Source: Verrucomicrobiota bacterium (lineage in GTDB: Bacteria; Verrucomicrobiota; Verrucomicrobiia; Limisphaerales; JADLHS01). Taken from it: a stretch of 64,000 nucleotides of DNA. Of this stretch, positions 1,891 through 60,190 are shown in pieces. The stretch spans positions 131,664 through 195,663 of the forward strand of contig JASGKY010000044.1 of NCBI GenBank assembly GCA_049840435.1, given 5' to 3'. Position numbers and translations under genes: made by a program. The notes below the pieces were generated by a model that worked only from the letters and a program-made list of their open reading frames with translations, was not told the DNA's origin and did no database searches. How positions within the stretch are numbered: position 1 is the stretch's first letter; every line of letters starts with the position of its first letter.

Positions 1891-3048
1891 ATGGCACTGC
1901 AAGATCTGACTCCGCAATTGCGCACGCGGTTGAATCGCATGGAGCGCGCGGTGGGCGTGTTTGTGCTCGTGGCCGCGGTGCTGTTGCTGGTGGGGTTTGG
2001 GTATTTTTTGAGGAACACCGCCCAGCGCAAAGGTTGGTTTACCCCGAAGTTCAAGTATCAGACTTCGCTCAATAACGCGGCAGGATTAAAGGAAGGCGAC
2101 GCCGTGCGTTTGATGGGGTTTCCCGCGGGTAAAATTCTAAAAATCGAACCCAACGATCCCACTGATTATTATGGCGTGACGGTCACGTTTGAAGTGATGC
2201 AGCCGCATTACGGCTACATCTGGGACGATTCGCGGGTGAAGGTTGGCGCGGATTTGCTGGGGAATCGTTTCCTGGAAATCACCAAAGGCAAATTCGGTGT
2301 TCCCACGATCCGGGAAACCACGAATCGGATGGCGACGGCCATGTTGCAATGGAAATTAATCCGGACCGAACGAAAATTGGTGGAGCAGCAAATCCGGGCG
2401 GCAGAGCCGGAATTGGAAAGCGGCAGTCCGGCGACGTTCAAGTGGAAGGTCAAAGAAACACTTTTGGAAATGGCAGCAACCAATCTGGTGACGTTCTACA
2501 CGAATCTGAACGAGGTCTATTGGTTTGATCCGGACGAATCCCCCGCAGTCAATGAGCGGTTGGAGGAACTCGTGAACAAAGTCGAGGCGGCGTTGCCCGG
2601 AATTCTTGATTTGACCAACAAAGTAAGTGCTGTGCTCGGCAACAGCGCGGCGCTGGCTTCTAACTTAAATGCCGTTGCACTCAGTGCCCAACCCGCGGTG
2701 ACCAACTTTGCTGCGCTCGCGGCGGAGTTGCGCGGGCCGGGGGCGTTGGGCGAATGGGCTTTGGGGACGAATGGGCAGCAAAGTCTGGATGCCGTGCTGG
2801 GTAATGCGAATCTGCTGCTGGCGCACAGTGACACGAATCTGATCGCGTTGATGGAAAGCTTCGGGGAGACCTTGGAGAATCTGGCTGGCATCACGAGCAA
2901 CCTGAACGCGCAGGTGCAGGCGAACACCAACATGCTAAGTTCAATTTCTCAGGCGGTGGTGAACACCGATGACTTGATCCAAGGCTTGAAGCGCCATTGG
3001 TTGCTTAAATCAGCCTTCAAGAAAAAGCCGGCGGCGACTGGGAAATAA
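1891..3048 (+). CDS. mlaD: MlaD/MCE-domain protein with long helical C-terminal region
   Basis: N-terminal TM; 'AAGLKEGDAVRLMGFPAGKI' and 'DLLGNRFLEITKG' MCE motifs; coiled-coil tail. Confidence 0.88.
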   Translation: MALQDLTPQLRTRLNRMERAVGVFVLVAAVLLLVGFGYFLRNTAQRKGWFTPKFKYQTSLNNAAGLKEGDAVRLMGFPAGKILKIEPNDPTDYYGVTVTFEVMQPHYGYIWDDSRVKVGADLLGNRFLEITKGKFGVPTIRETTNRMATAMLQWKLIRTERKLVEQQIRAAEPELESGSPATFKWKVKETLLEMAATNLVTFYTNLNEVYWFDPDESPAVNERLEELVNKVEAALPGILDLTNKVSAVLGNSAALASNLNAVALSAQPAVTNFAALAAELRGPGALGEWALGTNGQQSLDAVLGNANLLLAHSDTNLIALMESFGETLENLAGITSNLNAQVQANTNMLSSISQAVVNTDDLIQGLKRHWLLKSAFKKKPAATGK

Positions 3049-3110
3049 TTTCCCTTCAGTCGCGGCAACGATTTCCCCGCACAGACGTGAGCTTCACACG
3101 CCCGCACAAG

Positions 3111-3281
3111 TCAGAGTTGCACCAGCAAGAAGATCAGACCGCCGATGCACAGGGCGAAAAATCCCACCACGACCCCGTCCACGAGGCCAAAATGGGACTG
3201 CGCCGAGTGATTGGCGGGCAGCAGCGACGGTTTCACGTATTCGCCGCTCTTCCGGCTGACTTTGAATGCCAATGTAGCCAT
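3111..3281 (-). CDS. Small (56 aa) single-TM hypothetical protein
   Basis: AGGAGG Shine-Dalgarno-like sequence just before ATG at 3281; [22 protein letters not shown]...; C-terminal hydrophobic helix. Confidence 0.55.
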
Positions 3282-3454
3282 GCCTCCTGTTAAGCACAGC
3301 GCGGGCCAGCCAGCCCGCCGAGCAGTTGGGGATACTGGTCGCAGGAACAAGGCGAAGTTTTGGAAAGGCAGTCCCGAGAATTGACACTTCTGAGGCGGTT
3401 CGAACTTTGACGGGTAGTGCTTGCGTGTTGTCGTCCTGCCCGCAAAAATCCGGG

Positions 3455-4078: not shown

Positions 4079-4086
4079 TCTTCGCC

Positions 4087-5265: not shown

Positions 5266-5280
5266 TTCAAGGTTGCAGGG

Positions 5281-5466: not shown

Positions 5467-5646
5467 TTGCGCAATGGTCGGTCGCGTGTTGATGAACTTA
5501 TAATCTACAAGACTGGCGCTGTTCGATAACCCCTCAATCGCAAACTTAGACGTAATCACTCCCCATGCAGTCATTACCAGCAGGGTCGATTTGATCCGCA
5601 GCCTGACAGATCTCTCAGCCTGCAGATATTTTACCGCGCGTCATGC

Positions 5647-7433: not shown

Positions 7434-7443
7434 GATTCGGTTT

Positions 7444-11821: not shown

Positions 11822-13156
11822 GTGAGAAGTGGATCTCCATTGGGTGTGGCGGCAGGGATTATCTCAGCCTTATTCTTTATTTTCACCCCCCGGCTCCACG
11901 CAGAGGAGACCAATCTCTTAGAATCTTTAAATCTGTCGCTTCCACGGTTTTGGAACGCCATGGAATCCCGTCCAGGTCCCGTTTCGGTGGTTGCCTTTGG
12001 GGACAGCCTACAGGTACCGCATCGATCATTGTGCCAGTACCTATTCGCCTCATTGGTTTCCAAGGCCGGGCAGGCGGGACACTCGTTTTCTTGGCCGCCT
12101 TCAATTTCGAATCCGGATCTGGCTGGTGGAGCGTTTTGGACTCCATTCGCGGCTGTGGATGATTACTGGTGGATGCAGTATCTGATGATGCCCCCGCCGG
12201 CTATTGTGGCTTGGCGTAATCAAAGTCAGGTCAGTGGAGCGACATTATGCGATTTGATCGGGCTCTACTACTGCGTCGGGCCAGAGGGGGGGCAAATGCA
12301 GGTTGATGTTGCCACGAATGGCGGGGCTTGGTTGCCATTGGAGCTTTTAGATACTTATCGCGAAACAATTGAGACGCGATACGCTCGGTGGCAGTTGCCA
12401 CTCGGATATTACCAGATGCGGGTGCGGTCATTGACCGGAATCACGAATCGGGTGTTGGGGCCGGAAATGCTGAACTCGCATAGTAACGGTATCAGCACAG
12501 CCTATCTCTGGAACGACGGCGCGAATTTGAAAAGTATTCTCTCTTTTTCACCCCAAATCTTAGGCCCAGTGTTTTCGAACATTCACCCTGATCTTATAGT
12601 TTGGCACATGAAGGAACTGGCTAACCTAGGGGAAGTTACCCTGAGTAACGAACTGGAACGGCTAGAGGGATTCTGGAAGACAGTCGCGCCGGATGCTGAG
12701 GTGGTCTATATCGGGACGCCCTATGAGGCTATCGATTCCACCAATGTTCATACCGTAATACAGAACCGGTTGGTCCGGGATCTGGCCCTGCGTACGGGGC
12801 GTTGTTACGTGGATTGCATGACGCCGTTTGGTAGCTTTGCGCAGATGGTGACGAATGGCTACTTAGACGACGTAGTTCATATTAGTAATCCCGGTTACGC
12901 ATTCATGAACACCTTGGTTTGGGATCAACTGTGTTTTGAGGCGCTTCGTCAGGACCGGCGGCTAATGGCTCGAGGCACGTTGGCAGCACCGGTGCTTTCA
13001 TTTCAAAGTTTCACCAATATTGAGCATGTACTTCAAACATCTTCGAATCTCTCGGATTGGAGTATTGTGACCAGTTTGCAAGGTGATGGAACGCGAAAGG
13101 CAGTCACCAATCCGCCGGCTCATTCCCCAGTTTTTTATCGAATGCTGCTACGGTAG
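11822..13156 (+). CDS. Secreted SGNH/GDSL-hydrolase-like protein with C-terminal 'SSNLxxW..FYR' domain
   Basis: Signal peptide; VAFGDSL (block I); DDVVH (block V); tail LQTSSNLSDW...VFYRMLLR. Confidence 0.8.
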   Translation: MRSGSPLGVAAGIISALFFIFTPRLHAEETNLLESLNLSLPRFWNAMESRPGPVSVVAFGDSLQVPHRSLCQYLFASLVSKAGQAGHSFSWPPSISNPDLAGGAFWTPFAAVDDYWWMQYLMMPPPAIVAWRNQSQVSGATLCDLIGLYYCVGPEGGQMQVDVATNGGAWLPLELLDTYRETIETRYARWQLPLGYYQMRVRSLTGITNRVLGPEMLNSHSNGISTAYLWNDGANLKSILSFSPQILGPVFSNIHPDLIVWHMKELANLGEVTLSNELERLEGFWKTVAPDAEVVYIGTPYEAIDSTNVHTVIQNRLVRDLALRTGRCYVDCMTPFGSFAQMVTNGYLDDVVHISNPGYAFMNTLVWDQLCFEALRQDRRLMARGTLAAPVLSFQSFTNIEHVLQTSSNLSDWSIVTSLQGDGTRKAVTNPPAHSPVFYRMLLR

Positions 13157-13259
13157 GCAATTGCACCGCGTCGCCCATTTTATGATTCGTTTCGGTCTAC
13201 ATCACAGCTATTCCGCCAACATGGCTTCTGGTGTGTCTCGCGGGTGGCCCATTGACCCA

Positions 13260-16200
13260 ATGGCCCTTCTCTGGAACTTCTGGCTGGAGTGTCGTTGGCG
13301 ATACGACCGGAAAGCGCGGCGGCTTGTCTTGCTGGCGATATGGCTGGGCGGACTAATTGCAGCGGTATGCTTTTCATCGAGTGCGGTGGCGGCTGCTAGC
13401 GTCGAGCGTTACAGCTTTCAGGAGGACTTCTCCTTTACGGAGAATACGGCGAAGTCTATTTGGTCTTATCGGTTTCAGGCCAACGGCGTACCCGACAACA
13501 CTGCGCGTGATGGGCAATACGAATTGATGCTGGATCCGGTGGATAGCCCGACTAGCTACAGTCCGAACTCCAAGACTGGATGGTGTGATAGCGCAGGTTT
13601 CAACGGCACAGTCGAGATGCCGCAGGTGATTAAAAACGTCGCTACCTATGTCAATGACGGTATTCCTCCCAAAGAAGTAGTCGTTCACCCAGACAGAAAT
13701 CAAATCGTGGTGGTTAGTTGGCTAGCTCCGAGATCTGGGACCATCAAGGTCAGTTTTGAGTTCACAGATTTGGTGGTGTACAGAATCGCCGGATTACGAT
13801 GATGGAGTGACGTGGTTTGTGGACGTTGGTGATGCCACCGGGAACTTGGCGTCCGGACTTCTACAGCCGGGAGCTTCGACAGGCAGCCTCACCCGCACGA
13901 ACATTTCTGTTGTGGCCGGCGACCGGGTGCATTTTATCGTGGGGCGAAGCGGAAACTCTTTGGAGAAGAGCTGGTTTGACACGACCGATCTGAAGGCTGT
14001 GATTGAATATACTGATACGCCAGCGGCTATTGTTGCTACTCCGTCGGCGGCTTTCCCCCTGACCTACAATTCCAGTACGAACGAATGGACGTGTGTCTAT
14101 CAAGCAAATGGTTCGCCGAATAATCTGGCGCGGGACGGCAATTATGAACTGCTATCGCAACGAACCACTTCGTTTTTTGGGCTGACCAATGTGGTGGGTT
14201 GGACGGATTCGGGTGGCTTGCCGGCGGTCATGATTAACACCAACTATACCGTGACGATTGGGGCATCCGGGCTCAAGCTGGAAGCTTTCGAACTATTGTT
14301 GCACCCAGCTCCGAACCAGTTAGTCGGAATACAGTGGCTGGCCCCCCAGTCTGGGCGGGTGTCTATTCAATTTCAGTTTGATGATTTGGACTGGGGTGGC
14401 GGAGATGGTGTTGATTGGTATCTTCAACAACCCCGCCTTGGGCAGGAGCTGGCTCGAGGCTCAGTTCATTTGAGCAGCTCTGGCCGGCGTCCTACCACCA
14501 TCGATGTCATTGCAGGAGAAAAGTTGTGTTTTTTGGTCAGTCCGAAGGGAGCGGATCACACCTATGATTCCACCAAGTTGTGGGCTCATATCCAGTATCA
14601 AGAGCCGTTGACCGTAGCGCTGGCAGTTTCTAATGAAACGGTGCAGGTAGCGCGAGTGACTTGGGGGTTTCCGGGCGATCAACAGTTGTTCCGGTCTGGT
14701 GACGTCAATGGACCTTGGTACACCATTGCAGACACAAAAATCGGTTTGAGCGGAACGATGGCCCTCAATTACTGCTTTGAGGAATTGCCGTGTGGCCGGG
14801 GGGCTTTCTTCAAACTCAATTATGCTGGTACCGAGCGCCCAAAGCTATCCATGGATGGCACTTTGTTTAGCGCAAATTTTCTCGAGGGGATTCCGCCGAA
14901 TTTTCTCAATGTTCAGGTGGGCGACGTCACTTTTGCCGAATGGAAGACGAACGCGCTCTTAACCACCAGCTCGACCCCATTGGATACGAACCGGACAGCG
15001 GTGGTGTATGTATGGAACGATCCGTCTGGTCTAGAGATTTCATGTGAGGCTCTGTGTTACGCCGACTTTCCAGCAGTGGAGTGGTTGATGTGGGTTAAGA
15101 ACAACGGCGTCAGCAATTCACCTCCGTGAAGAATCTGTGTCCCCTCGACGCTATCTTCGTAGGTGCGCCCGATAGCACTCTCAGCCTCCACAGTTCGGTC
15201 GGAGGGCAACAGTCCCGAGAAGCTTTCCGTCCGGAAACAGAAGTTATAAGTGAAGGCACCAAAAAACGCTTCGGAACACCCGTGGTCGATCCAGTGAGCA
15301 GGTCTTGCCTTTTTTTGATCTTGAATCCGGACAATCCGGCGTGGTTTTCGCCATCGGTTGGTCTGGGCAATGGCAAGCCGAACTCAATGGAATCTTGTCA
15401 CGAGAGGTGCGTGTGCAGGCGCGACAGGAATCACTTAATGTGAGGCTGCGACCAGGTGAACAGATTCGCAGTCCGAACATGCTGCTGTTGACATATACGG
15501 ACGGGCGCACTGCGGGGCTTAATACATTTCGTCGCTTCATGAGCCGCCACGTGTATCCACAGAATACCAACGCGCAAATTCCGGGCCTTCAGATGAATTC
15601 TTGGTATGTGTATGGCGACAACGGCTACCCTCCCATCAACGAAACCAACTTGGTGCACTTGCTGGAGGCGTATCGGGCGCTGGACATTGATACCGTTGTG
15701 ATTGATGCCTGTTGGAACGGCGAATCTTGGTGGGGAGATGCGGGCAATTGGACACCAGCCACCAACCGCTTTCCCAGAGGGCTAGCGCCGGTGGGACAAG
15801 CTGCCACCAATCTGGCGATGCGGCTTGGGCTTTGGTTTGAATTAGAGAAGGCCGCCACGGGGACGGCCGCGCTTCGGGAACGCCCAGAACTCTTTTTGTC
15901 CGCACTGGGCTTCAACTGGGCGCTGCTTAACTTGGGAAAGCCTGCCGCACGCGAGTGGTATGTCACCAACCTGAACTATTACCTGACCAATACTCCGCTC
16001 GGTTATTTCAAGCATGATTACAACGTAAATCCCAAGCTCTTCTGGCGCGCTCAAGATCGCGAAGATGGGGTGGGGCTCACAGAAAACCTCTATATTCAAG
16101 GCCTGTATTCAACATTGGATCAAGTTCGAGCCTTGCATCCGGAGGTGGTTTTTGAAGGTTGTTCCAGCGGTGGGCTGCGGATGGATTGGGAAATGTTGCG

Positions 16201-16764
16201 CCGAGTCGATTGCTACTTTAAGAGCGATCTGTGGTTTGATCCGTTGGGTCACCAATGCCACATCATGGGGACAGCGCATATCTCTCAGCCAACTGCCTGC
16301 TAACTCCCTTTAAAAGTCTCGACCCAGATCCGTATGCTTTTCGCAGTCAGCTTGGAGCGGCTATGTCATGTGGTTGGGACCCCGACAGTGTAGACTATGA
16401 CCCCGTGCTGGTGGCGGATCGGGTGCGGGAATACAAATCTCTGCGTCATCTCTTTCAGGGAGATTTCTATCCGTTGTTCCCTCATTCAACCAGCGAGACT
16501 GTGTGGGCGGGCTGGCAGTTCCATCGAGGTGACTTGGGCGAAGGCATGGCCGTGGTCTTCCGTCGGTCTTCCGCGGCTAGCAGCATCACTGCCATAACTC
16601 TCAACGGGCTGAAGGCGGGGGCGAACTATGAATTTGTATGGGTAGACGAGGGTGTGACCAATCAGCTTAGTGGCGTCAGTTTGAGCCAGCCCCTGACGGT
16701 GACGCTCACCAACCGACCGGGCTGCAGCGCTGCTGTTGTATCACGAAGTGGGGCCTTGACCTGA
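13260..16764 (+). CDS. Large secreted multidomain GH36 alpha-galactosidase, broken by about 4-5 frameshifts
   Basis: Consecutive overlapping ORFs 13083-13802, 13756-15129, 15126-15443, 15305-16303, 16255-16764. GH36 motifs VIDACW, GLWFELE, YFKHDYN, FEGCSSGGLRMD, GDFYPL. Signal peptide plus two N-terminal beta-sandwich repeats. Confidence 0.8.
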
Positions 16765-22012: not shown

Positions 22013-22134
22013 TATTCAAACACACTTCATTAATCTTAAGAAATGAAATGCGCGGCTGTCGAGTACCGCAACCCAGGTTGTGAAGAATTTTTTGCAAATT
22101 TAGCAGGTCATTCACGATTGGATTTTAGTTTGCG

Positions 22135-26748: not shown

Positions 26749-29041
26749 TCACGGCCATCTCAGCCGGTGGAAGCAGGCGGGGGCATTCGTGCTTATTTCT
26801 ATCCAGCAGTCAATCGTCCCGCCCGGACCGGCCACGAGGTTGGTGTGGCTCACCCAGTTCACCAAGTTGGTCGAAGTCTGGAGTGTGTAGGTCAACCCAG
26901 CAGTGCCGGAGGCGTGCAGCCGGAACTGACCGGGCGCAGCCACCGAGTAGCTGGTGAACACCGGGGGCGGGGGCAGAAATACCGTCACAACCCGATTGGC
27001 CTGGACCGTATTGCCGCTGGCATCGGTCACGTTGTAAATGTTCGTGTAGCTCCCAGTCACGCTGAAGTTCACGGTATTCGTAATCACAATCGTGCCGGTC
27101 AGATCGCCCGCACACAGGTCGGTGGCGGTCGCACCGGGATCGGTGAAGGGAGCGCCCACTGCGTGTAGGAGGGGATTGTCTCCGAGCAGAGCCAGGACCG
27201 GCGGCTGCGTATCCACTATTACCACCGTTCGGGCGGTGGTGACCACTGCACCGAGGGCATTGGTGGCGTTGTAGGCCAGATTGTAAACACCCGGCGCGTT
27301 CGGGTTTACTGCGCCGCTCACCGACAGGGCAAGATTCAACAGGTAAACATCGGTGGGAATCGTGGCCTGGCCGTAGTTATTGAATCCCCAGCCGATGGCC
27401 GTTCCGTCGCCTTTGAGCGCCAAGCTCTGGAAATTGCCCGCTGCCAGTGCCACCACGTTGGTCGCACTGACTGGAATCGTGGTCTGGCCATAGCCGTTGT
27501 ATCCCCAGCCGACGACCGTGCCGTCCCATTTGATCGCTAGGCTTTGAAAATTGCCCACTGCCAGCGCCACCACGTTGGTCGCACTGACTGGAATCGTGGT
27601 TTGGCCGAAGTGCGGGAATCCTGAGGTTCCCGGTCCTCCTGCGCCCCAGCCGACGACCGTGCCGTCCCCTCTGAGCGCTAAGCTATGATAATGGCCCGCT
27701 GCCAACGCCACCACGTTGGTCGCACTAGCAGGAATTGTGGCCTGGCCGTAGTTTGGAAAGTCCGATGTTCCCAATCCGCCCGCGCCCCAGCCAACGACAG
27801 TGCCGTCGCCTTTGAGCGCCAAACTGTGTAAAGCGCCCGCTGTCAGCGCCACCACGTTGGTCACACTGGTGGGAATCGTGGTCTGGCCGTAGTCATTGTT
27901 TCCCCAGCCGACGACCGTGCCGTCAGCTTTGAGTGCCAGGCTGTGATAACGGCACGCTGCCAGCGCCACTAAGTTGGTCGCACTGGCGGGAATCGTGATT
28001 TCTCCGTAGTCGTCGTTTCTTCCCCAGCCAACGACTGTGCCGTCAGCTTTGAGCGCTAGGCTGTAAAATTCACCTGCCGCCAGCGCCACCACGTTGGTCG
28101 CATTGGCAGGAATGCTGGTCTGGCCCTCGTCGTTCCTTCCCCAGCCGAAAATCGTGCCGTCTGCTTTGAGCGCCAAGCTGTAAAGACCGCCCGCCGCAAG
28201 CCCGACTGGCGAGGCGCTCAACTTCGCACCCGGATCCATAAAGGCCACGTGACATTCGTTAGTCAGCGGACTGGGACCATTAAGCGCAATCAATGGCGAC
28301 CAGTTGGATGGTAGACGCCACGGGCGATTCAGCAATACACCATTGAGGTGATTGGTGGTGGCGTCGTAGGCAGCAATGCCCGCTGCCTCGTCAAACCGGT
28401 AGCAGGCCACCAGGCCGAGTGCGGTGGCAGTCACGGGCTGGAACATATAGTTGGTGATGTCCGCCCGGCTGCGGGCCACGTTCCACACGCGGACTTCTTC
28501 CAGCATCCCGGCAAAGTGGTTGGAGAGATTCCCGGAGTCGTTATACGCGGCACCGATGGTGAAGGGAGCACCCGAGACGGTCAGATTGATGCCATTGGTC
28601 GTGGTGCCGAGCGGCAGGCCGTTGACGAAGAACTGCGCGTTCGTCGGGGAGAGCACCACGGCGACATGGCACCATTGCCCCGTGGCGCCAGCGAAGGAGA
28701 CGGTCTGGTAACTGGCCCCGTTCCACAACCCCAGCGCGTTAGTGGCGAGGTCAAGGCGGTAGCGGGTCTGCGCGCTGGTTGGCCTACCCGCTGGCCAGCA
28801 GGCAGGCGTGGCCCGCCAGCATTCGGGGATTCATCCACAACTCAATCGTACCGTTCGTCAAATCCAGCGCCGGGACAGGCATCACGGAGACCTGATCATC
28901 CACGCCATCGAACGACAGAGCCATAGCGAAGCCTGTCTGCGCCGATGCGGGCTGGTTGATGAACCAAGTGGTACTAACGACCATTGCGACCCCAAGTAGC
29001 CAACGCCCAAGGGTGCATGAAAACAATCGATTAATTTTCAT
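26749..29041 (-). CDS. Secreted surface protein: LamG-like domain, RCC1 repeats, DUF5011/Ig-like domains and C-terminal 'STNLxxW' domain; frameshift near 28780
   Basis: Signal peptide and ALSFDGVDD in ORF 28784-29041; WCHVAV..F.G.LEEVRVWNVARS; HSLALKxDGTVVGWG repeats; FTDPGATATD; LQTSTNLVNW...FHRLRWP. Confidence 0.85.
27360..28200 (-). repeat. Intragenic RCC1-type tandem repeats (about 7 units of roughly 117-141 bp)
   Basis: Recurrent gccaccacgttggtcgcact / ccccagccgacgaccgtgccgtc segments encoding ATNVVALAAG..HSLALK.DGTVVGWG. Confidence 0.85.
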
Positions 29042-36227: not shown

Positions 36228-36911
36228 ATGAAAAAGCTCCGTTCGTTTCGTTCGTTATCGCTGGCCGTCGCCAGCGGGTTCGTCATTTTCTCCGCCTCCG
36301 CCGCCACGTTTGATGACGTGCAATACTGGGTCGGCTCCGGTGCCAACAAAGCGGCCTTCGTCATTGATTGGAATGATGGCAAATCCGCCGAATCGCTCCT
36401 GTGGGGCTATCGTTGGGATGGAGCCGCGACTGGGTTGGATATGTTCCAAGCTGTGGTTAATGCTGATTCACGCCTGTATGCACATGTCGGCAGTTACGCG
36501 TGGGGCACAGCGATTCTTGGCATCGGCTTCGACCTGAACGGCAACGGTAACTTTGGTGTGACGCCAGCACTGAGTTTCAACAGCGGCGGATTGTTCAGTT
36601 CCACCAGTCCGAACGATGCGCGTGTCTCGGTGGAAGCCGGCGATCACTATGTTGAAGGCTGGAACACTGGCTACTGGGAATATTTCAACAAATCTAGCGC
36701 TGTGGACGCTTGGGCTTCGGCAAGCGGGGGTATCACTGACCGAGTGCTTACCGATGGCGCATGGGACGGATTGAACTTCAACCTCGGGTTCGCTTGGCCT
36801 GGGGCTACCCCCAGCGAACCGATCGCAGTCACAGCTGTGCCTGAACCCAGCGCGCTCGCGCTGATTTCCCTTTCCGCACTTGTGCTGACATGCGCCCGTC
36901 GCAAACCATAA
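36228..36911 (+). CDS. PEP-CTERM surface protein, putative cobalamin-binding
   Basis: Signal peptide; C-terminal [24 protein letters not shown]; first gene under the B12 riboswitch; YW.Y...G....L.DG segment recalls DUF4430/transcobalamin-like domains (from memory). Confidence 0.85.
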   Translation: MKKLRSFRSLSLAVASGFVIFSASAATFDDVQYWVGSGANKAAFVIDWNDGKSAESLLWGYRWDGAATGLDMFQAVVNADSRLYAHVGSYAWGTAILGIGFDLNGNGNFGVTPALSFNSGGLFSSTSPNDARVSVEAGDHYVEGWNTGYWEYFNKSSAVDAWASASGGITDRVLTDGAWDGLNFNLGFAWPGATPSEPIAVTAVPEPSALALISLSALVLTCARRKP

Positions 36912-38368
36912 TTTGCGCCCTGGGACTGGTCGGCGTGCTTAACGCGTCGGCCAGTCCGTTCGCCACGGAAGTCGTGCGTGCGTCCGGCACGTTCGGTCCG
37001 GTCCCGTACCATGATCCCAACTCGGTGCTTCGGGCGCCGGCAACGTCGTTCCGCGATTTCTTCGGCGTCACTGCCCGCGTGAAGTTGGTGGAAGCGGCCT
37101 ACTACTTGGCGTCGACCAATACGGGGTTGCTCACGACCAATCTCATTCTCACGGTGGGAGCGGGGGATGAAATCATTGTGCGCTTTGATTCGCCGATTCA
37201 GGATGATCCGGCCCATCCATATGGCGTGGACTTGCTCGTGTTTGGTAATGCCTTCTTCACCCCAAACCAGTTCGTCAACGACAACACCGACATGGGAGCG
37301 TGTGTTCTCAACGGCCCAATTTTCTCCGAGCCGTTGAAAGTTTCCGTCAGCCCCGGATTCACCGGTCAGCTCGGCGAAATCGCCAATGATCCCGACACGT
37401 GGCCATGGTATCGCTACGACAACGGTCCGTTTGCGGACAGCGCATTTCCCACGCAAGCTTATCAATGGAATCGTGCGACGACGAATTGGTCGAGTCAGCT
37501 CATGGATTTCACCAAGCCGGTGAATCCTGCCCTGCAATCCCTCTTTACCGCTGGCGGCCTCACGGCGGCGGACGGTATTGATTTGTACGCTGGCGCGGGC
37601 GGTGGCACGGGATTCGATCTGCGCGAATCCGGCTTTGCGTGGATTCAATACGTCAAAGTTGAAGGCGTTGATCCGGATTTCAGCGATGGCGAGGTGGATG
37701 CTTTCGCTGCCGTGCGTTCGATGCACATCGGTGACACGCTATCCATCGCGCCGGAAAACCTTGCGCGCAACACCGCCGTCTTGTTTTTCCAGAACCCTAG
37801 TGCGGAAACTGAAACCACCGTTTCGCTCGCATTCGCTGCGGTCAGTGGCCTAGCGCAAGTTTTCACCGCGCCGCTGACGAACTGGAGCAGCTTCGCCGCA
37901 TTGCCGGGGACGGTGCGTACGGCGGTGCAATTGAATTTCACCCCGCTGCTCGGCACCACGCCAGTTACGTTTACCGCTGACCTTGCGTTGTCCGCAGGCA
38001 CAAATTATTTCGGCAATGGGAGCGACCTGCTGGTACTCCAATCCAGCGGCACGAACTGGACCGCGCGGCCGTTCACTTATCACAGCACTAATCAACAGGT
38101 GCGGGTCGCGGGACTCACCAATTTTTCTGCGTTCGTGGTTGCGCAGTTTACTGCCCCAACTTTGCAACTGGCGGCCAACGGGGCAGATTACAACATCCGC
38201 TTTACGCCGGTGGCGAGTCTGACGCACACGCTGGAACGTTCCACCAACCTGATGCATTGGTCGGCGCTGGGTTCCTTTATTGCGAGTAACGCGTTGCCCG
38301 TCGTTCTCACGGATGACGCCGCGCCGACTACCAAAGCTTTTTACCGTGTAAGGCTTGATCAACCATGA
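36890..38368 (+). CDS. Secreted protein with BtuH-like domain and C-terminal 'STNLxxW..FYR' domain
   Basis: Signal peptide; LTVG...IIVRFD.PI.D...DLLVFGNAF...SEP..VSVS...GFDL...YVKV resembles Bacteroidetes B12-locus surface proteins (from memory); tail [10 protein letters not shown]...AFYRVR. Confidence 0.7.
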
Positions 38369-46130: not shown

Positions 46131-46138
46131 CTGAACCA

Positions 46139-52860: not shown

Positions 52861-53574
52861 TCAATTGCGGCGATGTCGCAGCACGATCAGCGCAAAGCTG
52901 CCCAAAATACCGAGCACCATGGCAGACGGTTCGGGAATTGGTTGCGCGGAAATCGTGATGCCGTCAAAGAAGCCATAGCTGGCGTCATTGTTCGCGCCAG
53001 TGGTGGTCATGCCCAGTTGCAAGGTGAACGTGCCGGGCGCGCTGGTTCCCCATTGCCACGAATTCCAAGCGGGAGTTGAGGAGGGCAAAGCGAGCAAATT
53101 GACCGACGGTCCTGAGGTGGCATCCCATAGAGATGCGATGAGATGGCCTTCGGAATCGAGCACCCGCACCCAAGCGGTATCATTGGGTTGATTGTCCCCA
53201 TTGAAGAATGCGGCCAACCCGGACAGCCTTTCGCCCGGATTCAATGTGAAGCTTTGGCTGACAGAAAAGTTATACGTCTCATTACCTAGGAAATTTGCAT
53301 TGGCGCGCGAGTTGAGGGTCAGGAAGCGACCGCCATCTGCAGCGAGCATGCTAGGGTTGAAACCCAAGCCACTACCCCAAGTGCTCATCGTCCGGGCCTG
53401 ACCGGCCGTCCGGCTGAAGGGCTCCGTCGCGCTACTGCCGGAATCGCTTTGAAACGTCCAGCCCTGCAGATTCCAAGATTCAAAACTGCCGTTTGCCACG
53501 GCTGCACGCACCACTCCCGGAGCCGTCAGCATGGCCAATCCGATACCCAGGGAGATCATAAAACGGGTTTTCAT
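52861..53574 (-). CDS. PEP-CTERM protein
   Basis: Signal peptide from ATG 53574; NGSFES..L.GW; C-terminal IPEPSAMVLGILGSFALIVLRHRRN. Confidence 0.9.
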   Translation of the reverse strand: MKTRFMISLGIGLAMLTAPGVVRAAVANGSFESWNLQGWTFQSDSGSSATEPFSRTAGQARTMSTWGSGLGFNPSMLAADGGRFLTLNSRANANFLGNETYNFSVSQSFTLNPGERLSGLAAFFNGDNQPNDTAWVRVLDSEGHLIASLWDATSGPSVNLLALPSSTPAWNSWQWGTSAPGTFTLQLGMTTTGANNDASYGFFDGITISAQPIPEPSAMVLGILGSFALIVLRHRRN

Positions 53575-53664
53575 ATCGCGCTCCAAACTCCACCAAACCC
53601 GCAACTCTGCAACCAAGGGTGAACCCGAATCCGCCATCCGGCCGATTTCGGACAAAACGCCGGG

Positions 53665-54283
53665 TCAGGCCGCCGGAGCGGCAAGCTGTGCCAGCAGTTG
53701 CGCCTGCAACTGTGCCACGCACGCGGTTACGTTGAGTTGGTCGGTGCGCAACTCTACTTCCGCCGCTTGGGGCGGTTCGTAAGGGGCGGAAATGCCCGTG
53801 AAGTCCTTGAGTTCGCCAGTGCGGGCCCGGGCATAAAGCCCCTTGGGATCGCGTCGCTCGCATACTTCGAGCGGTGAATTGACGAATACTTCCACAAATC
53901 GGCCTGCCTGCGCCGCGGCCCGGGCGCGATCCCGGTCGCGACGATACGGCGAGATCAACGCCACGATGCAAATTAATCCCGCGTCCGCAAACAGCCGGGC
54001 CACTTCGCCCACACGCCGGATGTTTTCCTGCCGATCCTCGGGCGAGAAGCCGAGGTCGGCACACAAACCGCGTCGCAAACAATCTCCGTCCAGTACCACA
54101 GACCGCTCGACCACTCTGTTGCAGTTCAAGTTCCAAGGCCCGCGCAATCGTTGTCTTGCCCGCCCCGCTCAAGCCAGTCAGCCAGACGACGCAGCCTGTC
54201 CGCCCCGTAATCGTCTCGCGTCTGTGGATTTCTTGCGGATTTTCGACTTCTAACTTTTGACCTCTGACTTCTAACTTATTCAT
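53665..54283 (-). CDS. cysC: Adenylyl-sulfate kinase, frameshift near 54100
   Basis: [13 protein letters not shown] in one frame; [43 protein letters not shown] in the next. Confidence 0.92.
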
Positions 54284-57152
54284 CCTGCCAGTCCTTGAGT
54301 CGTTGATTGGCCACAGCTGTTTGAGGTGCGGCTGTTACACTGTTTGTGAGGAATGCCTGATAATACAGAATCATGGCATTGGTATCCCGTTCGTGCCACG
54401 CAATGCTGCCAAGACCAAACAGCGCGCTTGGTGCAGAAGCTGGATGGTTCAGTAGTTTTTCATAATCTTGCCGCGCGTCTTCCAGCTTCCCGGCTCGCAA
54501 AGCGGCGATGGCCCGGAACAACCGGGCGCTGGGACTAGTCGGCTCCAGCACTAGTGCTTGGGTCAATGTGCTTATGGCTGCCTCGGCTTGGCCGGCCCGA
54601 AGTTCCGCGTGGCCTTTCTTGATGATCCATTCCAAGCGTTTTGGATCTCGCTGCCACAACACCTCGCGCCATTTTAGTTCGTTACTAAACAACCCCGCAT
54701 TAGCCAGGAAATCTGCGGCCCCAAGCAGCACCGGAGTTTCAGTGCGGGGCGCTGCTGCAACCGAATTTATCAGGGCAACGGCGGCGTTGGTCTGGCCCGT
54801 TCGCCACAATGAAGTGGCCCGCGCTTGTAGCCATTGCGCTCGCGCCGGGCCTTGGAGTCGAGTGGTCGGAAGGACAGTTTCTTCCGTCAACGCCAGTGCG
54901 GCAGCATAATTACCCAGCAAGTTTTGGCACTGGGCCTGCGCCAATTGGGGGGCGATCCAATCCCCTGCTAGTTCCGCGCTGCGGGCGAAAGCTTCTAATG
55001 CTTGGCGCGGATTATTGGCGGCGAGATACATGCGGCCCGAATGAAATAGGAACGTTGGTTCGTCCACCGGACCGCAGCGACTGATGACCTCGGCCCACCG
55101 ATCGTAACGGCTGAGTTCTTTTGGATGCGTTTCGCGTAGCCATGCCAGGGTCAGTCGGTTTGTAATGCCGCGCTGGTGGCGGGTGGCAAATTCCAAGTTG
55201 ATAAGTGCGGTGAGGTTGTCGGGGTCAAAGGCCAGTGCGCGGTGAAACCAGAATGTAGTTTCCTCTTTCAAGCCTGCGCGCTGTGCCAGCACACCCCAAT
55301 GATTCAGCACTTTTGAATAAGCTCCCGCTAGCAACGCAGCGGTTTCATTGGCGCGACTCGATAATTTGAACGCTTGGACCGGAGGTTGCGTCCAGCGTTT
55401 CGTCTGGTTCTGATTGGTTTCAAACTGTTCTGCCCGCGTTGCTAACTCATTGGTCCAGCGCGCCTGCCAGAGCTGTTCATTGGCGGCGATTGTTTGAGTG
55501 GTGGTGGGGTGAGTTAGATTTTCAGGCGAGCGGGACTCCAGTTGTTGGACCCAACCATGCGGGGTCGCCGTGAAGGTTTCGAAAAAAAAGCCGGAGCTGG
55601 GCTGCAGATAAACCACCGGCTCGTTGGTGGCGATTTGTCGCACCGCGGCGAGCAACTGAACTGCCCGCAAAGCTTCGGTGCGATTGGTGCCGATCATATC
55701 AGGCCAGCGATCACCGTAGGTGCGGCGCAAGTGGCGATGGTAGCCCGACCGCGGCAGCGACGGGGTATCCACCAGCAAAACGTCTTGCGCCCGACCTCGG
55801 GCTGCCAATTCCGCCTGGGCCAGAAGCAGCGATGTCGTATCATCGCTTAGTACCGTCACCCGTCCGGCGGGCAGATCATCGCAGAGTTGCCGGGCGAATT
55901 CTCGTAGCGCCCCGCCGTTTGTCAGGCGGACGTTGTGGAAGTTTTTCCAGAGTAAACCCGCTGGCAGTAATACCAGCAAAATCAAGGCGACGGCAGCAGG
56001 CCATTTCACTTGGCGCCGGGCTTGTGGCTTTTTTCCAAATAACAGCAGGTAGCCCGCACAATGTCCCGCTACCAACGCCCACGTGTAATGGTAGAGCAAC
56101 AGCGGGGTGCGCAGTTCGACTTGACGCGGAATGATCGTGGCGTTCAGCGCCAGCCACAGCGCTGCGAGGAACAGCAACGCGTGGGTGAAGTGCCCGCTGG
56201 CTTTGGCAAAAAACACGCCCACATGGGTATCGTCCGCTAGTTGCACAGTGTGCGAACGCCACTTCACTGCCAGTAACAGGAATGGCAGCGCTGCGGTCAG
56301 CACCAGCAAGCGCAGCGCGGGCAGGTGGAAAATTTGCAGCGCCTGCTTTTGTACGCCCAATTCAAATTTCAGCGCCGGCCAGAAATTTAAAGGCTCCGGT
56401 GACGTTGCCCATTGCAGCATGGGCACAAGCAAATACAGGCTGAGTCCAGTTAGTGCCGCGCCGGTCAGGCGGAGCAGAAATTGGCCGTTGAGACATTTGC
56501 TGTAGCCCTTCACCCAGATGACAGCGGCGGCGAACGCTGGCAGGTAGCCGATCAGAAGCCAGCTATCCGTCATGCCGAGGGCGTAAGCCAAGGTGGCGCG
56601 ATAAAGCCACGAGTCCCGAGGGTCGAGGCGAAACTCCAGCACGCATCGAAACGCGACCGCGAAACACAGCAGGCTCAACATTTCGCCGCTCGCTGCCGTG
56701 GCATGCTCCCAAAAACCCAGTTGCAACCCGCAGATGGCCGTTGCAAACACTGGTGGCAGCCAGGCGAGTGGGCCGGTCAGGAGTGCGGGATTAGCCTTAT
56801 GTTTCCAAGCTGGGCCATCGGGGGCGACATCGTGTTGAAGCATCGCCACTGAGCGCGCGAGTTGGTGCAAAACCCCGGCAGCGACTCCAGCGGTGAGGAG
56901 ATTGGCGAGCCACGGCAGCCACGCCGTTGGTAAGAGTTTGAGTGGTGCGAATGCCAACAGGGTTAGTGGTCGCCCTAATCCTGGCTGCGGCCACCAGCCT
57001 GACCCGCGCGTCAGGGTTTCCAGACTGTGCAGTGCCAGCCAGTGATTTAGTGTGCTGCAATAGAACAGCAGCGCCGTGCCACCAATCAACCAGGACAGCG
57101 ATCGGGCTGGTTGGAGTGCTGGCGATGGGGCGCTGGATTTGTTGGTCATCAA
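54276..57152 (-). CDS. DUF2723 (TMEM260-like GT-C) membrane protein with C-terminal TPR repeats
   Basis: N-terminal multi-TM region with 'FWEHATAASGE' and 'SLYLLVP'; long soluble C-terminus with TPR-like helices. Confidence 0.7.
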   Translation of the reverse strand: MMTNKSSAPSPALQPARSLSWLIGGTALLFYCSTLNHWLALHSLETLTRGSGWWPQPGLGRPLTLLAFAPLKLLPTAWLPWLANLLTAGVAAGVLHQLARSVAMLQHDVAPDGPAWKHKANPALLTGPLAWLPPVFATAICGLQLGFWEHATAASGEMLSLLCFAVAFRCVLEFRLDPRDSWLYRATLAYALGMTDSWLLIGYLPAFAAAVIWVKGYSKCLNGQFLLRLTGAALTGLSLYLLVPMLQWATSPEPLNFWPALKFELGVQKQALQIFHLPALRLLVLTAALPFLLLAVKWRSHTVQLADDTHVGVFFAKASGHFTHALLFLAALWLALNATIIPRQVELRTPLLLYHYTWALVAGHCAGYLLLFGKKPQARRQVKWPAAVALILLVLLPAGLLWKNFHNVRLTNGGALREFARQLCDDLPAGRVTVLSDDTTSLLLAQAELAARGRAQDVLLVDTPSLPRSGYHRHLRRTYGDRWPDMIGTNRTEALRAVQLLAAVRQIATNEPVVYLQPSSGFFFETFTATPHGWVQQLESRSPENLTHPTTTQTIAANEQLWQARWTNELATRAEQFETNQNQTKRWTQPPVQAFKLSSRANETAALLAGAYSKVLNHWGVLAQRAGLKEETTFWFHRALAFDPDNLTALINLEFATRHQRGITNRLTLAWLRETHPKELSRYDRWAEVISRCGPVDEPTFLFHSGRMYLAANNPRQALEAFARSAELAGDWIAPQLAQAQCQNLLGNYAAALALTEETVLPTTRLQGPARAQWLQARATSLWRTGQTNAAVALINSVAAAPRTETPVLLGAADFLANAGLFSNELKWREVLWQRDPKRLEWIIKKGHAELRAGQAEAAISTLTQALVLEPTSPSARLFRAIAALRAGKLEDARQDYEKLLNHPASAPSALFGLGSIAWHERDTNAMILYYQAFLTNSVTAAPQTAVANQRLKDWQDE

Positions 57153-57401
57153 ACCGCGACAGTAGGGGCGAGTCAGCGCGGGTTGGCAAGTCGGCAGTCA
57201 AGCGGCGCGGAGTTGTCGCGCACTTGAAGGAGGTAGTTTTTTTTAATGTAACCTTAGTCAGGGCTAAGCCCGAATCGGAAGATTCACGGTGAAGTAGAAG
57301 TAAATGCTTCACCCGTTGGACTATTTTAGAAGCTAATCTCAATCCCAACACGACTGAGGCACTGTTGCGTTTCGTTGTGCTGCCAGCAATCAGATGTTTG
57401 A

Positions 57402-59123
57402 TCAGGTGTTTGGGGCGAGCGCCGTCCATTTTCCGCGGATGACCGCGCGCACTGATGGGGACAGCGGCGGCAGTTTGTTGGGGTCCAGAAAATTGCTGTC
57501 GAAGTACCAGTTGCGGTTGGGGGGATTATAGATGTCGTAGGCGGTGCCAGTGCCGAGCCAAGGTGCGGTCGCTTGTTTGCTTTGGAACAGAACCACCATC
57601 GAGCCATTGTAAGTGAGAGTTTTGCCGCTCCAATTTTCGAGGAAGCGCGGGAAGTTCTCCACCCCGCCACTGTAATGATTATTCCCGGTTTCCACGATGC
57701 CGGCCAGGAACGCCGCGTTTACAGTCGTGTCGCTGGCGTTCCGGTTGCCGAGAGATTTGGAGCTATTTCCGTCACTCCAGGCCCCCGACAGAATATTGAT
57801 TGCGTCGGCGATCAAGGCGGCGGGTTTGGTGGTGGCGGTATTACTGCTCCCCACTGCGGTGCCGGAGGCGTTGTAGTGGCCTTGGACGTACAGCGGATTG
57901 GGAGTGGCGACTGTCAGCCCGGAAGGCGGCAATGTGTCCCCATTGATCAAGCGGATGGCTGTGGCGGTGGTCGAACTGGTGGTACGCTGGTCCGCCACGT
58001 AAACCGAGGTGATATCTCGTTTGAGCGCATTCTTGAGGGCGTTGTTTGTGGTGGCATTCCACGTGTTAAGTTTTTTGACGTCAATTTCCGTCACCTTCAT
58101 GGTTTTACCTTCGCGCTTATCGTAGAAGCTTTTGGTGGTGCTGACAAAATTGCTAACGGAGTCCCATTTCAGGTTGGGGCCGTTGCCGTTGCCGACTCCG
58201 CCTCCGCGGACGTCCACGCTTGAATCGTTCACGACGATCACGAGATCGGCGTTGTTGTAAAAGCGTTGTTTGCCCATCTCTGTATTGACGGATTCGTTGT
58301 TTGGAGGGATTTCCACAATTTTTCTTAATTCATCGGGGGTGTTGGCGGCGCCGATGGGAATCTGCAAGGTCATCACTCCGCTATCGTGGTCGGATTTGAA
58401 GCTGACGCTGCCGCCACTCCGCACCGAGGGATCGCCCGGTTTTTTATCGGGAATGATTTCACCCGCGCTCGTGACGTCGCCACTAAAGGTGAGCTTGGCG
58501 CTGGGTTGCAGATAGATTTGAGCGTTGCCGTGGGTGCGGCCGCCAATAGTCATCTGGGCGCCGGGATTCACTTCCATATCCAGATTGTAGAAAATGGCGA
58601 ATTGGAAGATGGGGATGAGCGCCAACTGCACGTCTTGCTGCACCGTGCCACTTAACTTAACAGCCGCGTCCAGGTCCAGCGCGTTGGCGGTGATCCGGTA
58701 GGTGGCGGCGTAGCCTTTCAGGCCTTTATATTGGGAAATCAATGGCGTGCCATCGGCCCACGCCGCTACGACATCAACAGCCACTTCATTGTCCTGCTTT
58801 TTCCCGTTGCTGAATTTGAATTTGTTCCAGTGTGCGTTTTCGCTCCCTTTGGGCACGCGCGATTTGTAGGTGGGCACCTTGCCATGTACCACGGCCGCGC
58901 CTTGTTTGGCAAAGTCTGTCGCCAGTTCGGCGATGACTTTTTCTGTGGCTGCCTCCGCGGCGGCAACGGCGATGGAATGGCGCACCGCCCGATCGTTGAG
59001 GTTGGCGGTGGTGCTGGTCCATTGCATGGTGCTCGCCAGAATCAACAGACTGGCCGCCGCCAACACCATGACCACAAGCAATGCCGAAGCATTTTGCCGG
59101 GAGCGCCGAATCCATGTTTTCAT
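57402..59123 (-). CDS. PilX/HpsA-like large minor pilin
   Basis: N-terminal 'S|ALLVVMVL' PilX-type helix, AAEAA; PIFQFAIFY; C-terminal SGGVENFPRFLENW...YNPPNRNWYFD..LPP. Confidence 0.75.
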   Translation of the reverse strand: MKTWIRRSRQNASALLVVMVLAAASLLILASTMQWTSTTANLNDRAVRHSIAVAAAEAATEKVIAELATDFAKQGAAVVHGKVPTYKSRVPKGSENAHWNKFKFSNGKKQDNEVAVDVVAAWADGTPLISQYKGLKGYAATYRITANALDLDAAVKLSGTVQQDVQLALIPIFQFAIFYNLDMEVNPGAQMTIGGRTHGNAQIYLQPSAKLTFSGDVTSAGEIIPDKKPGDPSVRSGGSVSFKSDHDSGVMTLQIPIGAANTPDELRKIVEIPPNNESVNTEMGKQRFYNNADLVIVVNDSSVDVRGGGVGNGNGPNLKWDSVSNFVSTTKSFYDKREGKTMKVTEIDVKKLNTWNATTNNALKNALKRDITSVYVADQRTTSSTTATAIRLINGDTLPPSGLTVATPNPLYVQGHYNASGTAVGSSNTATTKPAALIADAINILSGAWSDGNSSKSLGNRNASDTTVNAAFLAGIVETGNNHYSGGVENFPRFLENWSGKTLTYNGSMVVLFQSKQATAPWLGTGTAYDIYNPPNRNWYFDSNFLDPNKLPPLSPSVRAVIRGKWTALAPNT

Positions 59124-59141
59124 ATCGTCTGAGGGGTAAGG

Positions 59142-59741
59142 TTATTCCAACGCTCGGCGGGTAACTTTGGTGCGCACTTGATAGTAGTCGTAGATGAAAC
59201 CGTTTCCGCTGCCTTGATTTCGCACGAATTGTAGGTTCAGCCCAATCACCCGGTTGTTAAAATTGTTCGATAGAACCTGTCCAAAACTGTCTTCTGAAGT
59301 GAACACCAGTTGATTGGTCACCGAGCGAGCCATGATGATCTCTGTGCCGTCGCTGGTGTATCGCTTTAGTATATCATCGTCTGTATCGCAGAAATAGCGG
59401 ATGAATTTGTTCGTCGCTTCCTTGTCTGGATAAACCTCCAGCGCATTGCCTTCCTGTCGCTGGCCAAAAGGGACTTCCGCGAAATTTGTCGCGTCGCCCG
59501 TGCCGATCCGGACTCGTCCGGCCGTCCGAATGTCTGCAGCAACCTTGCTCAAGGTGTTGCGGGCGTCGTTGCTCGCCAACAACTTCATTTTGACGGTCAT
59601 GTCATAGCGCATGGAAAAAATGTGCAGGCCCATGAAACCCGCCAGCGCTAACCCAAAAATGACGCTGGTCACCATGACTTCCGGCAACGTCATGCCCAGC
59701 GCTCCCCGCCGCCGGTTAGGATTTGCAGCATTCAATTTCAT
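59142..59741 (-). CDS. Prepilin-type protein (PilW-like)
   Basis: Class III signal RRGALG|MTLPEVMV. Confidence 0.85.
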   Translation of the reverse strand: MKLNAANPNRRRGALGMTLPEVMVTSVIFGLALAGFMGLHIFSMRYDMTVKMKLLASNDARNTLSKVAADIRTAGRVRIGTGDATNFAEVPFGQRQEGNALEVYPDKEATNKFIRYFCDTDDDILKRYTSDGTEIIMARSVTNQLVFTSEDSFGQVLSNNFNNRVIGLNLQFVRNQGSGNGFIYDYYQVRTKVTRRALE

Positions 59742-60190
59742 TGGTCAGGGGCCCGGTAGGTCGCGGTGGTATTCGTGAACAAGCCGCGGGCGCGAAAATG
59801 CCAGATGCTTTCCACGCGGATCATTTTTAAGGGTGGGTCTGCCGAAACATTTGTGATGAAAACGAAGTTAGTCGTGTAAGTGACGTTTGTTCCGGATTGC
59901 GGCACATCCAGGATTTCGACCGTAGGTGGAAAGTTGGCAGCTACCAGCATGTCCACCGCCGGGGCGGATTGGGTGTCCCACTTGGCGGCGCGGGCTGTTT
60001 CAAGGCGTTGCGAGGCGGAAGCCTGTGCGGCCAAATGATAGGCCGACCATTCAGAACGATTGGCAGAATGCACGTAACCGAGCAAGATCCCCCCAAACAC
60101 CATCCCTCCAATGGTAAGCGAGAAGACCACCTCAACCAGCGTCATGCCTGCTTGACTGCGCCTTTCAAAAAGGCGGCGGTGAACTTTCAT
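59738..60190 (-). CDS. Prepilin-type protein (PilV-like)
   Basis: RRSQAG|MTLVEVVFSL; ATG at 60190. Confidence 0.85.
   Translation of the reverse strand: MKVHRRLFERRSQAGMTLVEVVFSLTIGGMVFGGILLGYVHSANRSEWSAYHLAAQASASQRLETARAAKWDTQSAPAVDMLVAANFPPTVEILDVPQSGTNVTYTTNFVFITNVSADPPLKMIRVESIWHFRARGLFTNTTATYRAPDQ

Follow-up and report, generated by a model that had tools for sequence, protein, structure and literature searches.

A context-bound Thr-Asn motif in exported proteins of Limisphaerales is a candidate glycosylation sequon

Results

Exported proteins of the window are rich in Thr-Asn

We analysed a stretch of 64,000 nucleotides (the window; G000:C44:131664-195663) from the 6.0 Mb, 83% complete genome G000 of a Verrucomicrobiota bacterium of the order Limisphaerales, with the Thr-Asn dipeptide (TN) of its exported proteins as the element of interest. 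A first-pass annotation had counted TN by hand in the open reading frames (ORFs) of the window and had proposed that TN, or [ST]N, is enriched in exported but not in cytoplasmic proteins as a selected acceptor motif for a periplasmic modification. All of these counts were reproduced, and the enrichment held: 18 exported window ORFs together contained 83 TN versus 30.2 expected and 24 Asn-Thr (NT; Poisson p 2e-15), while 12 cytoplasmic window ORFs contained 7 versus 7.4 expected. Expected dipeptide counts were always derived from each protein's own composition, and comparisons are given throughout as observed/expected counts or as their ratio (O/E).

An MlaD-family periplasmic protein (Pfam MlaD; 1891..3048, plus strand; 385 residues) contains 8 TN versus 2.0 expected, with codon pairs at 2320, 2479, 2500, 2614, 2701, 2767, 2833 and 2926, all of which obey the context rule described below. 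In 120 homologues of this family, 838 TN were found versus 269 expected, and 6 of the 8 window sites were found in 107-120 of the 120. A LamG/RCC1/Ig-like exported protein (26749..28728, minus strand; 659 residues) has 17 TN with no rule violations, a GH36/melibiase-like protein in three ORF pieces (13756..16764, plus strand) has 14 (6+6+2), and a SurA/PpiD-like piece (33592..34872, minus strand; 426 residues) has 5. Two exported proteins previously labelled SGNH (11822..13156, plus strand; 444 residues, 7 TN of which 3 violate the rule) and BtuH-like (36890..38368, plus strand; 492 residues, 9 TN) gave no Pfam or NCBIfam match, so that these labels are unverified. PilW-like and PilV-like pilin-type proteins (59142..60262, minus strand) have 3 and 4 TN, every one obeying the rule, and a membrane protein that combines a GT-C fold with TPRs and a periplasmic alpha/beta lobe (54276..57152, minus strand) has 10, of which 9 follow the membrane part. 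TN was absent from YceI and, as the first-pass annotation had stated, from both PEP-CTERM proteins (36228..36911, plus strand; 52861..53655, minus strand), the class of which shuns TN and SN in this genus. A PilX-like protein (57402..59123, minus strand) has 1 TN versus 4.0 expected and is a possible avoider, a deficit that alone is not significant. Among cytoplasmic proteins, UvrB, GlmM and GlgC have 1 TN each, and MetF, FolP and LysR have none.

Genes are split or carry out-of-frame tails at 13083-16764, 20290-23554, 33336-34872, 46139-47659 and 53480-54283 of the window and at C33:3422-7574 of the same genome; they include GH36, DegT-like, PpiD-like, GH57-like and APS kinase genes as well as a second GT-C/TPR paralogue, split over two ORFs. 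The pattern suggests uncorrected assembly indel errors, not real decay.

TN is the most over-represented dipeptide of the genome

A custom hexamer gene caller gave 4711 genes in G000. In the 4296 proteins of at least 100 residues, TN had the highest O/E of all 400 dipeptides (7450/4838 = 1.54), while NT (0.84), SN (0.86) and T-x-N (1.02) did not show an excess. In the 971 signal-bearing proteins, TN rose to 3109/1818 = 1.71 with NT at 1486 (0.82) and SN at 0.83; TN is thus not matched by NT, as it would be if Thr and Asn content alone explained it, and the Ser half of the [ST]N proposal shows no positive selection. Per protein, TN exceeded NT in 536, fell below it in 156 and tied in 279, and 616 of the 971 carry a rule-fitting site. 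By comparison, 833 cytoplasmic-like proteins had an O/E of 1.06, with TN above NT in 230, below in 192 and tied in 411. The raw no-signal class stood at 1.47 before secreted-like fragments were separated, and it came down to 1.02-1.13 only in bins scored cytoplasmic by a composition classifier without T and N. Cytoplasmic proteins of relatives were at chance or below it (G006 97/102, G017 51/52, further related loci 90/114.9). Moreover, the excess followed topology: TN was 17/7.1 outside versus 5/7.1 inside in sensor kinases (n=9), 9/3.6 versus 2/2.7 in Ser/Thr kinases (n=4), and 1.49 on the outer versus 1.12 on the inner side in loops of polytopic membrane proteins.

The most TN-rich element was a domain of about 70 residues with an F-Y-R end (211/63.3), in which 108 G000 proteins terminate, including those with window C-termini at 13156 and 38368.

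Such an excess could also arise with no recognition at all, if TN were merely preferred in turns or helix caps, or favoured as a codon pair, and then multiplied by repeats and paralogous domains. Some TN sites do lie at helix starts, the repeated C-terminal domain reaches an O/E of 3.33, and one off-frame reading reaches 1.24. The excess nevertheless persisted at 1.82 in 452 proteins without paralogue or repeat, and it occurred in helix-like (1.91) and strand-like (1.60) windows alike. Shuffles within 10, 20 or 40 residues left 1855-1927 TN versus the 3109 observed, and the five other reading frames (0.86-1.24) did not match the coding frame. Finally, Thr codon use before Asn was that before other A-starting codons.

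TN follows a context rule and is conserved as a unit

With positions numbered from Thr (N = +1, X = +2, Y = +3), Pro at +2 abolished the TN excess (1.1), P, V, I, M, F or W at +3 gave an O/E of 2.1-2.7, and K, D, R, E or G at +3 gave 0.7-0.9. Enrichment, together with the avoidance described below, yields one rule: (T>S)-N-X(not P)-Y(not D/E/K/R/G). Other candidate sequons were rejected: N-X-S/T occurred 2904 times versus 2908 expected when no T precedes, S/T-X-N was at chance, and D-S/T-hydrophobic, i.e. D-(S/T)-(A/I/L/V/M/T), occurred 1016 times versus 1138 expected (0.89).

In 169 pairs of exported orthologues with G006 and G017, each counted in both directions, the T and N of TN were kept or lost jointly with an odds ratio of 11.0 versus 1.4-3.4 for 12 control dipeptides; in 184 cytoplasmic pairs the TN odds ratio of 4.3 lay inside the control range of 1.9-7.6. 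Between the two residues, N was retained slightly better than T (0.88 versus 0.81). In poorly conserved stretches, the T and the N of TN each had roughly double the retention of T or N elsewhere. Rule-fitting sites were retained in 172 of 287 cases and TNx[DEKRG] sites in 19 of 43 (background 0.44).

The motif is patchy across the phylum

As a rough guide only, confounded by out-of-frame matches (959/2922 in frame), the ATN/ANT DNA ratio was 1.37-1.64 within the genus (18 of 18 genomes) and spanned 0.81-1.89 across 12 further families of its order; several other DNA pattern pairs were discarded as GC-dependent. At the protein level, for which relatives were represented by samples of 40-800 kb per genome, exported TN was 532/288 (1.85) in G006, 1.63 in G017, 54/27 in G059, 14/8 in G230, 22/15 in G025 and 9/3 in G053; G024 had 26/16 with NT also high, and G056 (30/25), G037 (23/20), G078 (22/19), G093 (26/28) and G042 (17/16) lay nearer to expectation. 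Exported proteins of seven other genomes gave 175/190.8, and the excess was absent from the other Verrucomicrobiae sampled. The motif is thus patchy: a strong excess marks much of the order as well as part of another class within the phylum.

Two lineages depart from this pattern. In G027, rule-fitting TN lay under chance (32/52.3, p 0.002), and in G024 the leftover sites lean towards rule-breaking (20/39). Post hoc, these lineages may keep the enzyme discussed below while shunning the motif. In the same G027 samples (L034-L038, L187-L196), exported proteins had an excess of T-x-N (71/48) alongside their low count of rule-fitting TN; with about 110 pairs tested this may be chance, or it may reflect a shifted sequon. 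Limisphaerales-type genes also occur in several records titled Bifidobacterium or Akkermansia (L117, L126, L129-L131, L163, L173 and others), and these titles are probably wrong.

TpsA passengers and PEP-CTERM proteins avoid TN

The strongest evidence that TN is a recognition motif is its avoidance. The G000 TpsA protein (PF05860) contains 0 TN and 0 SN versus 17.2 expected, while its upstream neighbour, a FhaC/TpsB homologue, contains 8 TN versus 4.2 expected. In the TpsA family, represented by the best 120 of 1549 homologues, of which the named ones are Verrucomicrobiota, TN was 18/871.5 and SN 128/1109. When overlapping sites were read over whole sequences, 102 of 159 leftover sites violated the rule versus 30% expected, and Pro after Asn was common among them. 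A column-wise test with column frequencies fixed, in 103 of the 120 homologues (length 1250-1500), ranked TN (10/115) and SN (63/153) lowest among 293 dipeptides, with TD, SD, TQ, NT, NS and gapped pairs such as T-x-N normal; this test is uninformative where sites are fixed, as in MlaD (778/772). As kin that share a mean identity of 62% in their second half, the homologues do not amount to 120 independent observations. SN is shunned where TN is shunned, and to this extent the [ST]N proposal stands.

PEP-CTERM proteins behaved similarly. In 46 of them TN (21/57.5) and SN (27/59.3) were the two most depleted dipeptides, and this recurred in 10 proteins of G006 and G017 (TN 3/11.8, SN 2/13.3); the TN-free PEP-CTERM proteins of the window thus belong to a class that actively avoids the motif, an exception that backs the idea of an acceptor. 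Smaller sets pointed in the same direction (Tat-motif proteins 8/14; autotransporter-repeat spans SN 6/29); no autotransporter-repeat proteins were found as controls in the samples of relatives.

These data bear on the structural or codon-based explanation. Six outgroup TpsA proteins (Proteobacteria, Desulfotalea; some cut by the locus end) were mildly TN-poor (TN 0.66, NT 0.61, SN 0.87), so that the fold accounts for only a mild dip, and no structural account covers a 50-fold purge of TN and SN that spares rule-breaking sites. Similarly, 83 PEP-tailed homologues of the window PEP-CTERM protein of mixed origin (all taxa) were neutral (TN 66/71.0, SN 85/81.4), while the same domain was 3.8-fold TN-rich (34/8.9) in 4 homologues fused to the C-terminal domain of the lineage. 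Together with the chance-level exported proteins of the seven other genomes, these findings have already largely refuted a structural or codon origin, which we regard as highly improbable. In total, TN is selected in exported proteins, order-specific, rule-bound and purged from pore-threaded passengers; outer-side enrichment, joint conservation in orthologues, neighbour rules and the TpsA purge all support the proposal of the first-pass annotation that it is a selected acceptor motif.

Two neighbourhoods of avoiding proteins are described here in their own right, with gene names from sequence reading in the first. At C43:157662-166068 (L225), ExbB-, ExbD- and TonB-like genes come next after a TpsB-TpsA pair, an unusual coupling for two-partner secretion. 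Four TMTC-like GT-C genes (C2:74103-76307 and C29:12300-21393; L217) lie beside PEP-CTERM-like genes; their products have TPRs where complete and almost no TN of their own, and may represent a separate glycosylation route for TN-avoiding proteins.

A TMEM260-like protein fits the distribution of the motif best

G000 has three PF11028 (TMEM260-like) matches, with the 958-residue GT-C protein of the window as a fourth, degenerate relative. The full-length protein (1576 residues) is encoded on contig C59, outside the window, and matched PF11028 (E 1e-25) and human TMEM260 (9RQL; E 3e-12); for a G053 homologue, E was 7e-14. Equivalents of human D52, H67, R264 and Y267 align and are at least 95% conserved in 55 homologues.

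All 30 genomes of the order had PF11028 (29 over the cut-off), as had 68 of 200 outside the order, where the same class accounts for just 2 carriers among 66 genomes. With the DNA ratio of TN-x-[IMV] to NT-x-[IMV] as a proxy for the motif (1.50 in G000), ratios of at least 1.4 outside the order were reached by 9 of 68 carriers versus 0 of 132 non-carriers, and ratios of at least 1.25 by 15 of 68 versus 2 of 132; family medians were 1.12 with PF11028 (25 families) and 0.94 without (22). PF11028 thus looks necessary, not sufficient, for the motif.

Other enzymes were considered and rejected. A C9 PMT_2-like protein was present in 40 of 60 chosen genomes, including low-ratio families, and missing from 5 of 5 of family f45 and from G037; TIGR03663 was present in 35 of 60 and missing in G025, G030, G034, G037, G059, G089 and G179; and a TMTC-like protein was present in 34 of 60 and missing in G021-G023, G025 and G030. 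STT3 (PF02516), of which the profile could miss a remote form, was found in 0 of 1 (83% complete) and 0 of 5 (95-97% complete) genomes, and PF08409 had no match in G000. Of five candidates, the TMEM260-like GT-C enzyme fits the distribution of the motif best, with exceptions, and we give it a slightly better than even chance of being the transferase.

Alternatively, another enzyme could glycosylate or otherwise modify TN (e.g. with phosphoglycerol, phosphoethanolamine or an acyl group), or a periplasmic chaperone or retention factor could bind TN tightly and hold proteins back from pore secretion. Sequence statistics speak to recognition and not to chemistry, exceptions to the enzyme correlation exist in both directions, and G000 holds five further GT-C candidates, as well as Wzy_C proteins, beyond those profiled by distribution. 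Against these points, the three profiled alternatives are missing from several motif-rich genomes, and a short hydroxy-amino-acid motif with neighbour rules on the non-cytoplasmic side is the pattern of O-glycosylation in Bacteroidota. We consider another enzyme or factor rather unlikely.

In 71 loci, the neighbourhood of the full-length gene showed no glycan pathway; ECF sigma (35), GrpE-like (19) and DnaJ-like (17) genes, named from sequence reading, were present. Elsewhere in the genome, on contig C20, a motif match alone pointed to one DPM1-like synthase candidate. Partial relatives also occur. A 468-residue ORF with a lipoprotein-like signal (L226:1483-2889; G006 C27) comprises solely the periplasmic lobe of a TMEM260-like protein, without the membrane part or the conserved Asp, and a 466-residue membrane-only ORF (L224; G000 C14:6933-8333) keeps the His motif and lacks the first Asp motif.

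The GT-C/TPR protein of the window is likely a substrate

The predicted model of the 958-residue window protein (54276-57152; pLDDT 86.8) has a GT-C fold, a periplasmic alpha/beta lobe and TPRs, and matches Pmt1 (Z 17.6, root-mean-square deviation 4.7, 332 aligned), Pmt4 (Z 17.3) and PglB (Z 15.6). TMEM260 was not among the VIA-align matches listed, and Foldseek and profile searches gave only TPR proteins among the matches listed. The protein, labelled DUF2723-TPR by the first-pass annotation, itself had only TPR family matches; PF11028 is carried by 14 of 58 homologues. The donor-binding D52 and H67 motifs are absent from this protein and from four other paralogue-type proteins examined. In 56 homologues, TN was 333/78.8 in the periplasmic part versus 19/21.2 in the membrane part, and of the 9 periplasmic sites in the window protein, four are conserved in 39-55 of the 56. 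In the model, TN sites lie in loops, at helix ends and in mid-helix, which fits recognition of an unfolded chain. Because it lacks the donor-binding motifs, this degenerate TMEM260-like relative is probably a substrate and not the catalyst; it may also serve as an accessory subunit.

The gene comes after the minor-pilin cluster in the window (54276-60262). This link is not kept in G017, where the paralogue lies directly after cusA, or in G019 and G027, where it follows other genes, and the pilin block looks inserted.

Discussion

Here, we report a TN excess that is real, strong and general in its lineage, and that most likely reflects a new glycosylation sequon. The steps beyond motif recognition, i.e. 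the glycan, the residue and the enzyme, are ones that we infer. Judged from the statistics of the sequences, the mark on TN is very probably covalent and bulky, and there is a good probability that it is a glycan. Given a glycan, it is fairly likely that Thr and not Asn bears it. The composite proposal, that TN marks the acceptor sites of a general glycosylation system in the periplasm, O-linked on Thr and carried out by the TMEM260-like GT-C enzyme of contig C59, has in our view an even chance of being correct as a whole. According to this proposal, unfolded chains would be modified as they leave Sec, with the full-length C59 enzyme as the putative transferase that would move a sugar from a lipid carrier to the Thr, or more rarely the Ser, of a rule-fitting motif. 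Periplasmic and membrane-anchored proteins would gain TN sites for stability or folding, and passengers of TpsB pores would lose them, as one glycan would block or misfold them.

Two arguments favour O-glycosylation on Thr: the best-fitting family is an O-transferase on extended peptides, with a preference for Thr and tolerance of Ser, and in the closest bacterial analogue an Asx stands next to the acceptor hydroxyl. Human TMEM260 (GT117; PF11028; PDB 9RQL/9RQM/9RQN) O-mannosylates IPT domains (PMC10214176; bioRxiv 10.64898/2026.03.17.711096), acts on extended chains (bioRxiv 10.64898/2026.03.17.711096), and uses Thr as the acceptor with Ser tolerated, in a long, degenerate sequon with Gly at +3 and a hydrophobic residue at -1 (bioRxiv 10.64898/2026.09.21.753134). 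In common with it, the full-length bacterial protein has a GT-C module, a Rossmann-like lobe, TPRs and the D52, H67, R264 and Y267 equivalents; it differs in that the bacterial proteins span 930-1600 residues. The string 'bacteri' occurs 0 times in the main text of bioRxiv 10.64898/2026.03.17.711096, and our literature searches found no bacterial TMEM260 substrate.

The general O-glycosylation of Bacteroidota uses the motif D-(S/T)-(A/I/L/V/M/T) and an O-linked glycan with a Man-Rha-GlcA core. Its transferase is not identified in the review PMC12871550, which presents the motif as the only known bacterial O-glycosylation motif and leaves Verrucomicrobia unmentioned. The two systems share a short motif with a hydroxy residue beside Asx that is enriched in the non-cytoplasmic proteins of one lineage and reaches a large share of exported proteins; B. 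thetaiotaomicron also has PF11028. A further likeness, the confinement of TN to non-cytoplasmic proteins and loops, was tested and found here. They differ in that Asn here follows Thr while Asp there precedes the hydroxy residue, in the strong preference for Thr here, and in that the D-S/T-hydrophobic motif is not enriched here.

A different linkage would make TN an N-glycosylation sequon, in which Asn bears the glycan, the preceding Thr or Ser serves as the recognition hydroxyl, and a non-STT3 GT-C transferase (TMEM260-like or other) acts. TN resembles the STT3/PglB/AglB sequon in that Asn stands beside a hydroxy residue, Pro is disfavoured in the position right after it, Thr is preferred to Ser, as it also is by oligosaccharyltransferases, and exported proteins alone are concerned; yet the hydroxy residue is at -1 in TN and at +2 in N-X-S/T, and neither S/T-X-N nor N-X-S/T lacking a preceding T departs from chance here. 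That Asp and Gln cannot replace Asn, that N is retained slightly better than T, and that the catalytic Asp is shifted relative to the human O-transferase all speak for Asn as the acceptor. The loss of enrichment with Pro after Asn, and its frequency in tolerated leftovers, are like the oligosaccharyltransferase N-X rule as given in PMC12871550, and because of this exclusion N-linkage keeps some probability. It is opposed by the lack of STT3 in the six genomes searched and by the membership of the best-fitting candidate in an O-transferase family. Moreover, no GT-C family besides STT3 is known to glycosylate Asn. We therefore regard N-linkage as unlikely. Quite unlikely is its more specific form, in which a TMEM260-family enzyme would be a general glycosyltransferase with a new sequon, switched to N-linked transfer to the Asn of TN without STT3, and the efficient mark would act as a sorting gate that purges the motif from pore-passing proteins.

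Several observations weigh against O-glycosylation of TN by the C59 enzyme. The whole case is statistical, and no glycan or mass shift has been observed. Export and membrane classes came from heuristic signal and membrane classifiers, not SignalP, so that class labels are approximate, and a motif-defined cytoplasmic set (n=203) reached 215/177 = 1.21. TNP was retained in 17 of 24 cases, which does not support the Pro rule, and in a cruder comparison of a broader class with no correction for local identity, TN was kept in 54 of 150 cases in G017 (0.36 versus 0.42 for controls); the same comparison gave a modest gain in G006 (0.53 versus 0.43). As to the enzyme, the TN rule is unlike the human sequon, the R355 equivalent is lost, and a conserved Asp of the catalytic loop lies one position off human D441 in a weak segment of the alignment. 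The co-occurrence of PF11028 and motif rests on few clades with kin that are not independent, carriers outside the class have a median ratio of just 1.11, and four TMEM260-like carriers had no TN excess in their samples (G019 29/31, G027 48/48, G183 25/28, G035 8/21). Finally, the full-length gene was not found in the 96% complete assembly of G006, which has the TN excess; this absence may be an assembly gap, because the usual neighbour gene was not found there either.

Our literature searches, which mostly did not cover subscription papers, turned up neither a T-N sequon nor a glycoproteome of this lineage, and nothing on glycosylated proteins in Limisphaerales or Kiritimatiellae. If true, TN would be the second motif-directed sequon of bacterial O-glycosylation, read from positive selection together with near-total avoidance, and a forbidden-word scan of pore-threaded passengers would offer a general route to unknown sequons. 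The bacterial TMEM260-like proteins gain a concrete candidate peptide substrate and, by analogy, a TMEM260-like protein becomes a candidate for the missing transferase of Bacteroidota. A tag with a two-residue core that is placed on unfolded chains would also suit glyco-engineering. If the proposal is correct, general protein glycosylation would extend to abundant Verrucomicrobiota of soil, freshwater and sea, i.e. to Limisphaerales and part of a second class.

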